Assembly: GCA_964196475.1 (NCBI GenBank)
Contig: CAXMUI010000151.1
Location: 1 to 51,905 of the forward strand
Reading direction: 5' to 3'
Length of the DNA stretch: 51,905 bases
Origin: an uncultured Acidimicrobiia bacterium
GTDB lineage: Bacteria; Actinomycetota; Acidimicrobiia; Acidimicrobiales; JAHEJN01
Under the pieces are notes generated by a model, which saw only the letters and a program-made list of their open reading frames with translations, had not been told where the DNA came from and did not search any database. Every line of letters starts with the position of its first letter. The first letter of the stretch is position 1. The position numbers were made by a program, and so were the translations under genes. Shown here in pieces: positions 14,246 through 24,629 of the stretch.

Positions 14246-15223
14246 CTATTGCAGAAGCCGTGCCGCTCGGGTGGCGAAGTAGGTGAGCGTTATGTCGGCT
14301 CCGGCGCGGGCAATGCCAAGCAGCGATTCCATCATGACCCGGTCACCGTCGATCCAACCGTTGGCCGCGGCAGCTTCGATCATGGAGAATTCGCCCGAGA
14401 CTTGATAGGCAGCTACGGGCACGGTCACCATGTCTTTGACGTCTCGGATCACATCGAGGTACGGCCCCGCGGGCTTGACCATGACCATGTCCGCTCCCTC
14501 GGCCAGATCAATAGTGACCTCGGTGAGGGCTTCGAGTCCATTGGCTGGATCCATTTGATGGGAGCGGCGATCACCAAATGCGGGTGTGGAATCAGCCGCG
14601 TCGCGAAACGGACCATAGAATGAACTCGAGTATTTTGCGCTGTAAGAGCAAAGCGCAAGCTCGCTATGGCCGGTGGCATCCAGAGCGGTTCGGATGGCAG
14701 CGACACGCCCGTCCATCATGTCCGACGGCGCAATGATGTCGGCTCCTGCATGAGCGTAGGCCACAGCTGTTTCGGCGAGTAATGGCAAGGTGGCATCGTT
14801 GTCGACCACCCCATCGACCACGACGCCGCAATGGCCGTGTGAGGTGTATTCACACATGCACACATCGGCCCACACCACAATGTCGTCACGCTGGTCTTTG
14901 ATCGCTCGGATTGCTGCGGGAACCGGACCATCGGGGTCGGCCGCGGAAGAGCCAACCTCGTCCTTGTGGTCAGGAATACCAAACAACATGACCCCGCCGA
15001 CGCCAGCCTCGGCGGCTTTGGCAACAAGGGGAAGGAGACGATCAACCGACACCTGAAAATTACCAGGCATCGAGCCAATCGGCTTTTGTACATCGGTGCC
15101 GCCGGTGACGAACAGCGGCAAGACAAAACTCGCTGGGTGGAGCCGGGTTTCGGCAACCTGTCGTCGCAGCGCTGGGGACCGACGCAATCGGCGAGTTCGA
15201 ACAAAGGATGGGGCTTCGGTCAT
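14246..15223 (-). CDS. hemB: Porphobilinogen synthase (ALA dehydratase)
   Basis: DVCMCEYTSHGHCG zinc site; APSDMMDGR, FYGPFRDA, MVKP and AYQVSGE motifs. Confidence 0.97.
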   Translation of the reverse strand: MTEAPSFVRTRRLRRSPALRRQVAETRLHPASFVLPLFVTGGTDVQKPIGSMPGNFQVSVDRLLPLVAKAAEAGVGGVMLFGIPDHKDEVGSSAADPDGPVPAAIRAIKDQRDDIVVWADVCMCEYTSHGHCGVVVDGVVDNDATLPLLAETAVAYAHAGADIIAPSDMMDGRVAAIRTALDATGHSELALCSYSAKYSSSFYGPFRDAADSTPAFGDRRSHQMDPANGLEALTEVTIDLAEGADMVMVKPAGPYLDVIRDVKDMVTVPVAAYQVSGEFSMIEAAAANGWIDGDRVMMESLLGIARAGADITLTYFATRAARLLQ

Positions 15224-21828: not shown

Positions 21829-22905
21829 GTGAGCGAAGCCGACGACCTACGCCATAGTCCCATTGAAGCAGCTCACGTAGAACTCGACGCCAAGCTGGTG
21901 CCCTTCGGCGGCTGGAACATGCCGCTGTCCTATCCAAGCGGAACCCTCCACGAGCATCGCGCCTGCCGTACCGGCGCCGTGGTGTTCGATGTGAGCCACT
22001 TAGGCACCGTGCGGGTTAGGGGAGCGAATGCCTTCACTGCTCTGCAGGCTGCGTTTACCAACGACCTTGGCCGTATCGAGGTCGGCAAGGCACAGTACAC
22101 CCACCTGTTGGATGAGCACGATGCCTCGGTTCTCGATGACATCATTGTCTGGTGGCGCGAGGACGAGTTGTTTGATGTCATGCCGAACGCGTCAAACACG
22201 AGTCGAGTCGAAGCGGCACTTACCGCGGTGGATGGCGTTACTGCAGCAAACGTGACAGAGCATCGAGCGGTCTTTGCCGTACAGGGTCCAGAGGCTAAAC
22301 AACGCCTCGCCACTGTTGCGCCAGAGTTGGCTGATATTGGGCGCTTCCGTGTCGGTGAACGTCAATGGAATACAACCACGTGTGTCGTGGCAGGCACTGG
22401 CTACACCGGCGAACCCGGTCTTGAGATAGCAGTGCCGCTCGAAGCGGCCAACGACTTGTGGAAAGCAATCGTTGGCGCCGACATTGAGCCAGCTGGACTC
22501 GGCGCACGCGATACCTTGCGGCTCGAAGCCGGATTACCACTGCACGGTCACGAACTTGGCCCTGGCATCACCTCTCTTCAGGCCAAGCTGGGCTGGGTAG
22601 TGCGCTGGGACAAAGGCGATTTTCGAGGCCGTGATGCCTTGGCCATCGAGAAAGAAACCGGCCCAGACCGAGTTCTGGTCGGGCTTACCGTTGAGGGGCG
22701 TCGCCCGCCTCGCGAAGGACAGCCAGTAGTCGTCAACGGTCAGGCCGCCGGCATGGTCACCAGCGGAAACTTCTCGCCGATGCTCGAGTGCGGTATTGCT
22801 ATGGCATTCGTTCCGTCATCGGTAACCGATAATGATGATCTCGCCGTCGATATGCGAGGCAAATTGGTAGCGGCTTCGCTAACCAAAATGCCGTTCGTCA
22901 GTTGA
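21829..22905 (+). CDS. gcvT: Glycine cleavage system aminomethyltransferase T
   Basis: FGGWNMP, FDVSHLG, AVQGP, TGYTGEPG and GLGARDTLRLEAG motifs. Confidence 0.96.
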   Translation: MSEADDLRHSPIEAAHVELDAKLVPFGGWNMPLSYPSGTLHEHRACRTGAVVFDVSHLGTVRVRGANAFTALQAAFTNDLGRIEVGKAQYTHLLDEHDASVLDDIIVWWREDELFDVMPNASNTSRVEAALTAVDGVTAANVTEHRAVFAVQGPEAKQRLATVAPELADIGRFRVGERQWNTTTCVVAGTGYTGEPGLEIAVPLEAANDLWKAIVGADIEPAGLGARDTLRLEAGLPLHGHELGPGITSLQAKLGWVVRWDKGDFRGRDALAIEKETGPDRVLVGLTVEGRRPPREGQPVVVNGQAAGMVTSGNFSPMLECGIAMAFVPSSVTDNDDLAVDMRGKLVAASLTKMPFVS

Positions 22906-22906
22906 G

Positions 22907-23464
22907 CTAAAGAGCGGCCACTGCGTCGAGGATGCTCTGTTCAGGCATTCCGCCTGCCCAACTGGCAATAATTTCACCATCGGCAGTCAGCAGACGTCCT
23001 TGCGGCTGTCCAGCGATGCGAAGCTCTCGCCAACTGTCAAAGGTTGGGTCCCATAGCATGTCGAACGGCGCTTCTCCCTCGTATAGATCCATGAAATCAA
23101 GGGCATACTCCATGTCATTCTGTGCGCCAACACCGATGATCGTTACTTCGTCTGCATGCTCTCGGGCAAACTGCCCGACGCCAGGAGCTTCCCGGCGGCA
23201 GGTCGATCAATAGGGCGCCCAGAACCACAGAACAATGGGTTTGTCGGCGGGAGCATAACTAGCCAACTGCACGCTCTCGCCGGTATTGAGGTTTATCATC
23301 TCGACATCCGGCAGGTCCGACTCGCCGCTGAGAGAGGGGGCCTCGGTCGGGGTGTCGCCCGTCGTTGAACTGGCCACGTCGGTCGTGCTGGCACCTGAGC
23401 AAGCGCCGGCAAAAAGCCCAAGTGCCACAGTGGCACTCGCGAGGGCTTTGGCAGGTTTGATCAT
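22907..23464 (-). CDS. Thioredoxin-fold (TlpA/ResA-like) lipoprotein with an in-frame TGA at the active site (UxxC); probable selenoprotein
   Basis: ORFs 23207..23563 and 22907..23113 share one frame; read-through gives LWFWAPY-TGA-STCRREAP...IIGVG...IAGQP; FAGAC lipobox after ATG 23464. Confidence 0.8.
23171..23201 (-). promoter_or_regulatory. Candidate bacterial SECIS hairpin
   Basis: CTGCC-GCCGGGA-AGC-TCCTGGC-GTCG-GGCAG begins 5 nt after the UGA; the G-containing apical loop is 17 nt after the UGA. Confidence 0.5.
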
Positions 23465-23513
23465 AGAGAAGGCTCTTTTGTTGGGCGCGACAGAGTGGAT
23501 GCGCTCTCTAGAT

Positions 23514-23539
23514 AACTCTGTACAAGGTGGAATAGTTCC
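23514..23539 (-). promoter_or_regulatory. SigR/SigH-type ECF promoter candidate
   Basis: GGAAC-N18-GTT in the 79-nt gap between aroC and the thioredoxin-like gene. Confidence 0.5.
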
Positions 23540-23543
23540 CGGA

Positions 23544-24629
23544 TTAGCAAAGATTGTTGACATGCTGCCGGAGCAGGTGATCGGCGAGCACCAAGCACGT
23601 CATAGATTCGACAATGGGCACAGCGCGTGGCAGTACACAGGGGTCATGCCGGCCATGGGCAGCAAGCTCAGTGGGTTCGCCGCGCGTGGTGACTGTCTGC
23701 TGAGCAGAGGAGATCGTGGCAGTCGGTTTGAATGCCACGCGCAAGTCAATGACGGCACCATTGGAGATACCACCTTGGACGCCACCGGAGTGATTGGACG
23801 TGGTGACGGGTGTGCCATCGGGACCTGGAACGAAAGGGTCGTTGTGTTCGAGACCGGTCATCGTGGTGCCGGCAAATCCGCTGCCAATTTCGAAACCCTT
23901 GGTGGCCGGAATGGAAAGCATGGCTTTGGCAAGGTCGGCATCGAGTTTGTCGAATACGGGTTCCCCCCAGCCAGCCGGGACATTCTTGGCTACTAAGCGA
24001 ACCACGCCACCTAGTGAGTTTCCTTCATGGCGCGCTTGGTCGATGGCATCAATCATGGCCGCGGCGGCTTTTGGATCGGGACACCGGGTTGGTGTTGCCT
24101 CGACGTCGGACCTTGTCACGTTGGCGCCGTCGATGTCGCCGGTGATGGTGTGAACGGACTCGACCCATCCGATTACCTCGACCCCAGCAGCAGCACGGAG
24201 TAGCTGGCGGGCTACGGCCCCTGCCGCCACGCGTGCGATGCTTTCGCGAACGCTTGAACGTCCGCCGCCACGATGGTCACGCAGGCCGTACTTGGCGTCG
24301 TAGGTGTAGTCGGCGTGCGAGGGCCTATAGACATCTTTGAGATGATCGTAGGCACCGGAATTGTGGTCTTTGTTGCGCACCATCATGGCGATAGGGGTGC
24401 CCAGGGTGACACCGTCCACGATGCCAGACAGCACTTCGATCGTGTCGGCCTCGTCGCGTTGGGTCACGAGTCGGCTTTGGCCCGGACGTCGTCGGTCGAG
24501 TTCGGCTTGCAGTTCGCCGAGATCGACGGCTAGTCGAGGAGGGCAGCCGTCAATGATGACGCCAACACCTACGCCATGGGACTCGCCGAACGTGGTCACG
24601 CGAAACAACGTGCCGAAGGAGCTACTCAT
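23544..24629 (-). CDS. aroC: Chorismate synthase
   Basis: TFGESHG, RPSHAD, GGGRSS.RE, GG.QGGISNG and GRHDPC motifs. Confidence 0.97.

Follow-up and report, generated by a model that had tools for sequence, protein, structure and literature searches.

Selenoproteins in which selenocysteine (Sec, U) takes the first position of a thioredoxin-like CxxC motif have been catalogued as UxxC Prx-like and Trx-like families in marine metagenomes since 2004-2008. The Global Ocean Sampling (GOS) marine study describes Prx-like 1 (pfam00578, UxxC, 225 sequences), Prx-like 3 (pfam08534, UxxC, 68) and Trx-like 1 (COG0526, UxxC, 321), and the sections of it available to us place these families among the most abundant marine selenoproteins (PMC2398784). 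The available part of a second source names 'Prx-like thiol:disulfide oxidoreductase' (PF00578, UxxC/UxxU) and 'Thiol-disulfide isomerase-like' (cd02966) as known selenoprotein families (PMC13188914). Here we describe a TGA-interrupted gene in a 51,905-nucleotide (nt) stretch of contig CAXMUI010000151.1 (assembly GCA_964196475.1) from an uncultured Acidimicrobiia bacterium; this whole stretch is called the window below. Sequence comparison strongly supports the interpretation of the gene product as a selenoprotein. The kind of selenoprotein is already known, and the gene is a new member of it, from an actinobacterial DsbE/DsbF-like lipoprotein branch. Very probably a single gene at this locus encodes a thioredoxin-fold oxidoreductase that is exported and lipid-anchored and has Sec as the attacking residue, most likely a reductant recharged through a CcdA-type carrier.

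The window gene and the catalogued Prx-like and Trx-like families have in common a thioredoxin fold, AhpC-TSA/Redoxin domains, Sec in the first position of UxxC and a marine origin. In both, Cys homologues are far more numerous and UxxU variants occur, here in two paralogues of one relative (G032). This comparison was made with the descriptions in the available parts of the two papers (PMC13188914, PMC2398784), and the exact subfamily is not established. A WFWAP[HWY]U signature, a lipobox with a tether and a spread across Actinomycetota are absent from those published descriptions, whose supplementary tables may list the family. The actinobacterial branch is unannotated in public databases, with the reservation that such supplementary tables and BSepDB, for which a partial source was at hand (PMC13326102), may list it. 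A 2026 preprint on Actinomarinales, in the portion accessible to us, reports Sec machinery and about five predicted selenoproteins per genome, leaves this family unnamed, and presents the machinery as unreported for Actinomarina. No full-length homologue (101-324 amino acids [aa], E <= 1e-10) was found among 695 candidates from a collection of 5.8 billion proteins; the public proteins are fragments, five N-terminal ones of 79-85 residues and one C-terminal one of 68 residues, unnamed or called 'hypothetical'. A first-pass annotation, made from the sequence alone, had proposed a UxxC Sec oxidoreductase at this locus and ranked it as the strongest candidate for new biology in the window. The proposal is borne out by the TGA column, the Sec machinery and the hairpins described below, but the ranking is not, since UxxC families had already been catalogued.

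Similarity to solved structures is closest to Mycobacterium tuberculosis DsbF (Rv1677, 3IOS) and DsbE/MPT53 (1LU4), which match with template modeling (TM) scores of 0.76-0.81 at 29% identity and have in common with the window protein the pattern LWFWAPWCxxC..EAP..V, where the mycobacterial proteins carry Cys and the window protein Sec. In our literature search we found no paper linking selenocysteine with MPT53 or DsbF. ResA (1ST9, TM 0.81), CcmG (2B1K, 0.80) and TlpA (1JFU, 0.78) have the same fold, a CxxC followed by Glu-x-Pro, and an extracytoplasmic tethered domain. Their anchor is a transmembrane helix, whereas that of the window protein is a predicted lipid, and the NCBIfam cut-offs for these proteins are far from reached. 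Another likeness is to the pneumococcal surface lipoproteins Etrx1 and Etrx2 (4HQS, 4HQZ), also of thioredoxin fold, of which 4HQS matches residues 18-182 (TM 0.77). Etrx1 and Etrx2, themselves fed by CcdA, reduce a methionine sulfoxide reductase outside the cell and are thus a plausible functional model. They differ from the window protein in carrying Cys and in belonging to Firmicutes, and the window gene has no msrAB neighbor.

With TGA read as U, the minus-strand frame 23464..22907 encodes one product of 185 codons, from the ATG at 23464..23462 to the TAG stop at 22909..22907. Genetic code table 11 instead gives a pair of open reading frames (ORFs) in the same frame, 23207..23563 and 22907..23113, both on the minus strand. 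The sole in-frame TGA is codon 86 (23209..23207, minus strand), in the context PIVLWFWAPY-U-STC-RREAPGV, and it occupies the first Cys position of the CxxC motif (FWAPY-U-STC-RREAP). This translation agrees with the first-pass annotation, which had joined two short ORFs into one 185-aa frame split exactly at the first Cys of the motif; its locus and TGA coordinates also stand, to which we add the minus strand that it left unstated. We take 23464 as the start because the homologue from the same genus begins at the identical Met. Compared with that homologue (G001), the ratio of nonsynonymous to synonymous differences (pN/pS) is 0.17 overall, 0.19 upstream of the TGA and 0.15 downstream of it. 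TGA ends 11 of the 39 open frames of at least 250 codons in the window, among them the neighboring convergent 358-aa ORF, 21829..22905, whose TGA lies at 22903-22905. TGA is thus an ordinary stop in this organism otherwise, and there is no reassignment.

We searched the window genome and 60 relatives (1 of the same genus, 4 of the same family, 55 of the same order) in six frames and located the counterpart of query residue 86 in every excised locus, with TGA translated as U. Checking covered the 30 best loci of each search, and all counts of the TGA form are lower bounds. TGA stands at the column of residue 86 in 32 of 44 aligned rows from these 61 genomes, and the other 12 rows have Cys. The 32 rows represent at least 31 gene copies, from at least 23 of the 61 genomes of the order; without the unpublished genome G046 (locus L028) the TGA form is found in at least 22 of 60. 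One gene (in G003), split by a run of N, gives two rows and was counted as one copy. In this orthologue (L025, G003:C64, about 1301-1581) the same 60 nt that follow the TGA occur on both sides of the N run, and the interruption looks like an assembly gap or a duplication artefact.

We next used a profile of alignment A2 (33 rows, the unpublished locus excluded) to search 301 genomes sampled across the phylum. Among the 29 new loci listed, 22 have TGA and 7 have Cys at the Sec column (21 TGA among 28 without locus L077 of the unpublished genome G324), and 16 of the 22 TGA loci lie outside the class, in 8 families. A search with the single window protein found one locus, the same-genus relative L060. 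Altogether there are at least 53 TGA copies from at least 45 genomes, and 19 Cys rows, in one column. Counts that include L028 and L077 rest partly on unpublished genomes, and the conclusions hold without both. Neither Trp nor Gly occurs at the Sec column among the verified homologue rows, where the alternative is Cys. Within A2, four columns are invariant (W31, C37, which is the U, C40 and G62), and five more nearly so (E43, V47, D90, W96 and Q104). TGA and Cys thus alternate at one column with conservation on both flanks, including the purifying selection downstream of the TGA, which is the pattern that the first-pass annotation had proposed looking for.

It had also named a strain-specific change from TGY to TGA, or a sequencing error, as a way in which the claim could fail. 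Nine DNA runs from four studies, and no RNA run, were listed for the stretch; the comparison used contigs, and parts that they leave uncovered carry no weight. No TGY variant appeared across codon 86 in the contigs of other public runs, and a contig from a run of a different study spans 23173-23323 with no differences.

Close WFWAP-type Cys forms were found in four genomes: the G058 paralogue L048, L035 of G013, L049 of G032 and L036 of G008. G058 carries both a Sec form (L022) and this 43%-identical Cys paralogue, and L048 adjoins a CcdA-like gene. In G032, two neighboring paralogues on the minus strand (L054, G032:C38, about 1450-1848 and 2329-2727) have TGA at both redox positions (WAPW-U-PF-U-RAEAP, thus UxxU), and both are followed by a hairpin with a GGUC loop.

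The window genome, a metagenome-assembled genome that is 76% complete in 262 contigs, holds all four components that had been named as necessary for Sec insertion. A tRNA-Sec was found by Rfam at 64.6 bits (cut-off 47) and by ARAGORN as tRNA-SeC with anticodon tca. The selA match (390.5 bits) is adjacent to selB (277.6 bits; a 573-aa frame that also has the C-terminal match), and selD was found at 365.1 bits (L016, G000:C93:21110-22057, where G000 is the window genome). All of these matches exceed curated cut-offs. The selD frame contains one in-frame TGA, and selenophosphate synthetase is probably itself a selenoprotein here.

The TGA form occurs together with selA, which we report as counts and without a statistical test, since related genomes are not independent. 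In the order, selA exceeds the cut-off in 45 of 61 genomes, and these include all 23 with the TGA form. In the remaining 16, where no selA match exceeds the cut-off, no TGA form was verified among the matches listed; the only match with one TGA in these selA-less genomes (G018) has Cys at the active column. Two genomes with no selA match, G008 and G013, carry WFWAPWC Cys forms. In the phylum sample selA was found in 207 of 301 genomes (E <= 1e-30), including all 22 with further TGA forms, so that selA accompanies every verified TGA form, in 45 of 45 genomes. Sec use looks common in this sample, which is rich in uncultured lineages.

Bacterial Sec insertion also depends on a Sec insertion sequence (SECIS) downstream of the UGA. 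The bacterial SECIS (bSECIS) model, in the part of its source available to us, has an apical loop of 3-9 nt, a stem of 4-16 base pairs (bp), a minimum free energy of at most -7.5 kcal/mol, a G within the first two nt of the loop, with G or U as the usual next letter, and a distance of 16-37 nt from the UGA (PMC13188914). Two hairpins follow the TGA on the coding (minus) strand. Hairpin 1 (23179..23197; nt 13-31 from the U of UGA) has a 7-8 bp stem, a loop AAGCU/AGC, a spacing of 16-17 nt and a free energy of -12.4 kcal/mol (z -4.0 against dinucleotide shuffles). Hairpin 2 (23162..23178; nt 32-48) has a 6-7 bp stem, a loop (A)GUU(U), a spacing of 34 nt and a free energy of -10.5 kcal/mol (z -4.2). 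Both fall within the bSECIS limits of spacing and energy, and hairpin 2 also matches the G-U loop pattern. With the better fit to the loop rule and the cleaner covariation of the two, hairpin 2 most likely provides the SelB-binding SECIS loop. A single hairpin had been proposed earlier at 23171-23201; its SECIS-like spacing holds, but that interval corresponds to hairpin 1 plus part of the 5' arm of hairpin 2.

Because hairpins within a coding sequence (CDS) may be a by-product of the protein sequence, we compared the homologues with 300 synonymous-codon shuffles each. At nt 9-36, the 30 Sec copies have a mean free energy of -10.2 kcal/mol and a mean z of -0.98, with 10 copies at p<0.05, while the 12 Cys copies average -5.5 kcal/mol and z -0.13, with none at p<0.05. 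At nt 4-57, the corresponding values are -20.6 kcal/mol, z -1.05 and 10 copies for Sec (n=30), and -16.6 kcal/mol, z -0.31 and 1 copy for Cys (n=12).

Pairing was then compared within each of the two clades into which the family falls. Over 19 sequences of the clade of the window gene, 99.1% of cells in hairpin 2 are paired, with compensatory changes at two pairs (CG in 17 and UA in 2; AU in 13, CG in 4 and GC in 2). In one of the changes in this hairpin, a codon that goes from Glu to Gly in the window gene faces an Ala codon with a synonymous change that restores the pair. For hairpin 1, whose register shifts from one homologue to another, a low 64.7% of cells are paired in fixed columns over the same 19 sequences. 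In the second clade (10 sequences) the hairpin is a different one, 26 nt from the UGA, and its GGUC loop is invariant; it is 91.7% paired and has compensatory changes at 4 pairs, and none of 500 shuffles was as good. Covariation, suggested beforehand as a check on the hairpin, is therefore seen both in hairpin 2 and in the hairpin of the second clade.

The predicted domain covers residues 50-185 (22910..23317, minus strand), according to Pfam, AlphaFold2, Foldseek and phmmer. One Pfam domain spans the TGA: AhpC-TSA (PF00578) matches residues 51-153 at 40.9 bits (cut-off 26), Redoxin (PF08534) residues 51-174 at 36.5 bits (cut-off 26.6), and Thioredoxin (PF00085) matches at 29.9 bits (cut-off 23.5). 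AlphaFold2 with alignment A2 gave a thioredoxin fold at a predicted local distance difference test score (pLDDT) of 97.4, in which a helix runs from domain residue 38, right after the U at domain residue 37. The redox motif U86-S-T-C89 (23198..23209, minus strand) is thus placed at the N terminus of helix 1, and both of its redox positions are invariant in A2 when U is read as C; codon 86 itself (23207..23209) is read as Sec by prediction, with its TGA column conserved and Cys in the other homologues. Gln153-Pro154 of the AGQP loop (23003..23008, minus strand) holds the cis-Pro position of thioredoxin folds in A2, in the alignment with DsbF, where it faces 'QP', and in the model, where it directly precedes strand 106-110. 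Gln153 (Q104 of A2) is nearly invariant, and the Pro after it is the consensus without being universal. The remainder of the fold, including the AGQP loop, is thus intact, and Pfam, AlphaFold2 and Foldseek agree on the thioredoxin-fold identity, both as first annotated.

The best solved relatives by phmmer were M. tuberculosis DsbF (3IOS, 4e-14), a Thermus thio-disulfide isomerase (3IA1), MPT53/DsbE (1LU4, 1.2e-9) and Etrx1 (4HQS, 1.2e-9). Foldseek matched 1LU4, 3IOS, ResA, Chlorobium DsbE, Etrx1/2, TlpA and CcmG at TM 0.74-0.82, with probability 1.00 for ResA, DsbE and TlpA. The protein carries the signature of the actinobacterial DsbE/DsbF (MPT53) family, WFW(A/T)P(W)CxxC..EAP, and is most similar to 3IOS and 1LU4. 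Sequence and model together identify it as a predicted TlpA/ResA-like thioredoxin-fold lipoprotein. Two narrower assignments were rejected. A DsbE or ResA of cytochrome c maturation does not fit the NCBIfam scores (DsbE/CcmG TIGR00385, 39.2 bits against a cut-off of 123, and NF011941, 30 against 359; ResA NF002854, 32.1 against 170; TlpA NF047696, 21.2 against 230), and the neighbors of the Sec gene in the window include none for cytochrome c maturation. Peroxiredoxins have a Thr or Ser three residues before the peroxidatic residue and a Pro four residues further up; a typical peroxiredoxin (PxxxTxxC) was rejected because there is no Thr or Ser at -3 from U86, where the preceding residues are L-W-F-W-A-P-Y.

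The N terminus carries a signal peptide and lipobox, read from the sequence (residues 1-22, MIKPAKALASATVALGLFAGA-C22; 23399..23464, minus strand). The lipobox, ...LGLFAGAC(22)SG, lies in a segment K6-ALASATVALGL-FAGA-C22 that fits a lipoprotein pattern modeled on published Gram-positive ones. Forty-four of the 53 Sec copies conform to this pattern, as do 5 of the 10 Cys copies. An ...AGC or ...SAC box is visible by eye in several of the others, and the signal peptide of the mycobacterial-like Cys forms is of the plain type, with no lipobox. A Ser/Thr/Pro/Glu-rich linker follows (residues 23-49; 23318..23398, minus strand), its length varying among homologues, in which 53 to 217 residues separate the lipobox Cys from Sec. 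Both lgt (219.7 bits) and lspA (101.3 bits) were found in the window genome. The membrane-anchored, exported lipoprotein of the first-pass annotation is therefore supported by an export signal and lipobox common to the relatives, with lipidation predicted, and from this we infer that the protein is lipid-anchored at Cys22.

We built a tree of 62 domains (52 Sec, 10 Cys), leaving out rows containing N and distant non-WxW paralogues. It has two clades, each supported at 100/99: clade 1, with 24 Sec forms and 1 Cys form, includes the window gene, and its sister clade 2 has 28 Sec and 9 Cys forms. The Sec/Cys label changes six times on the tree, and well-supported branches force at least two changes. 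Cys forms are scattered among Sec forms, in genomes where no selA was found (G008, G013) and in genomes with selA (G032, G058, G084, G235). Mycobacterial-like Cys forms (WFWTPWCPFCNAEAP), which have a CcdA-like neighbor, group inside clade 2 with the Cys form of the selA-less G013. Such forms, with a plain signal peptide, were seen in genomes of 5-6.5 Mb in family f94 (L079, L082, L083, L084), and we take them to resemble mycobacterial MPT53/DsbE.

Sec forms are present in both deep clades, in at least 45 genomes and in at least 8 families outside the class. This distribution is compatible with a tentative idea, which we consider rather doubtful, that the actinobacterial DsbE/DsbF (MPT53) family outside cultured mycobacteria consists mainly, and perhaps ancestrally, of surface selenolipoproteins, from which the mycobacterial Cys proteins would be derived. 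The sample is made of the top matches to a profile in which Sec forms predominate, and the tree is rooted at its midpoint. Given this Sec-biased sample and midpoint root, we treat an ancestral Sec state only as a possibility.

Gene order around the locus is conserved. The convergent ORF 21829..22905 is presumably gcvT-like, and the same-strand upstream ORF, 23544..24629, presumably aroC, both judged from their sequences. The order aroC - Sec gene - gcvT is kept in the window genome and four relatives (G000-G004) and partly in G043 and G028, which indicates that these Sec genes are orthologues and offers no functional clue. A greedy ORF map of the window revealed no second TGA-split gene. The gap at 14624-14965 was considered as one and rejected, as a 325-aa minus-strand ORF spans it.

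In the mechanism we propose, Sec-tRNA(Sec), brought by SelB, would read the UGA of codon 86. SelB would be recruited by the hairpins just downstream in the CDS, with hairpin 2 and its G-U loop as the likeliest site and hairpin 1 as part of the same SECIS element or as an accessory. After export of the precursor, Lgt would attach the lipid at Cys22 and LspA would make the cleavage; a flexible tether rich in Ser, Thr and Pro would then hold the mature protein at the outer membrane face. There, Sec86 would attack a disulfide (or sulfenate) of a substrate protein, and Cys89 would resolve the mixed intermediate, giving an internal Se-S bond. Recharge would come through a CcdA-type membrane electron carrier, as in ResA, TlpA and the pneumococcal Etrx proteins. 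Selenium may speed up the exchange and, in oxygenated seawater, protect against irreversible over-oxidation.

We give a CcdA-fed reductant role about an even chance, and it is the likeliest role for three reasons: CcdA-like neighbors in other genomes, the family to which the fold belongs, and the Glu-x-Pro conserved just behind the motif. A CcdA-like gene adjoins the Sec gene in three loci (G009, G059, G308) and Cys forms in seven, including mycobacterial-like ones. The two CcdA/DsbD-type genes of the window genome (G000:C27:8076-9503 and G000:C85:691-1646; L061, L062) each lie beside a Cys-type TlpA-like paralogue, so the reductant partner of the Sec protein is a guess.

Several points weigh against parts of this interpretation. 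We infer the actual insertion of Sec, the lipidation, the substrates and the direction of electron flow from sequence. Position -3 of the lipobox is Ala instead of Leu, Val or Ile, and no NCBIfam model exceeded its cut-off for the protein, nor did any selenoprotein-specific model match. Hairpin 1 has no single register across homologues, and RNAalifold on an ungapped alignment of 22 sequences gave no consensus structure, which is explained by the shifting register of hairpin 1 and by the use of a different hairpin in each clade. The clade structures that we tested were derived from the same sequences, which favors them. Rfam returned no matches in 22850-23550 (E <= 1); bacterial SECIS elements are thinly covered in Rfam, and this null says little. 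A further point concerns direction: the window Sec gene has no CcdA neighbor, and M. tuberculosis DsbE and DsbF are reported to assist the oxidative folding of proteins in vitro, according to the available part of the source (PMC3853704). The same selenoprotein could thus work in the opposite direction, as an extracytoplasmic oxidase or isomerase that makes or shuffles disulfides and is reoxidised by a membrane oxidase. That its best matches are these oxidative proteins, DsbF foremost, speaks for such a role. CcdA-like genes flanking 10 family loci, mycobacterial-like Cys forms among them, speak against it, as does the retained CxxCxxE.P signature, with E43 of A2 nearly invariant. This signature is common to reductive ResA/CcmG-type proteins, and a Se-S bond is generally harder to reduce than an S-S bond, its reduced form being the better donor. 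We regard the oxidase or isomerase as possible and less likely than the CcdA-fed reductant.

Two other explanations would remove selenium from the product altogether. In one, the UGA is read through by a near-cognate Trp or Cys tRNA, or by local reassignment, with an ordinary residue at position 86; selenium in the product is after all deduced, and the absence of an Rfam SECIS match would fit. We consider this very improbable, because TGA is a normal stop in the long frames of the window, the TGA form keeps company with selA in every verified genome, with no verified TGA form in the 16 relatives that lack a selA match over the cut-off, the homologue column is Cys and never Trp or Gly, and covarying hairpins lie at SECIS spacing. 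In the other, the TGA arose by nonsense mutation or by an error in sequencing, so that the locus holds either a pseudogene or a pair of small ORFs with no relation to each other, as gene callers, which split it, and the public sets, with their 68-85-residue fragments and no full-length form, would have it. This is the least probable of all: the same TGA recurs in at least 45 genomes (at least 53 gene copies), the sequence downstream of it is under purifying selection, contigs of other public runs have the same letters, and the synteny of aroC - Sec gene - gcvT is kept in the family.

The selenoprotein reading, with the exported reductant as its likeliest form, makes a modest biological point and no new kind of system. 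It adds a well-supported exported Sec enzyme, lipid-anchored by prediction, to a phylum whose selenoproteome has barely begun to be described. As no NCBIfam model reaches its cut-off, annotation pipelines can be expected to go on splitting the gene in many Actinomycetota genomes. The link to mycobacterial DsbE and DsbF, for which structures and assays exist, makes a comparison of Sec with Cys in an extracytoplasmic oxidoreductase feasible. If the family is mainly a Sec family, this exported enzyme would help to explain why marine Actinomycetota with small genomes retain the Sec machinery in spite of its cost.

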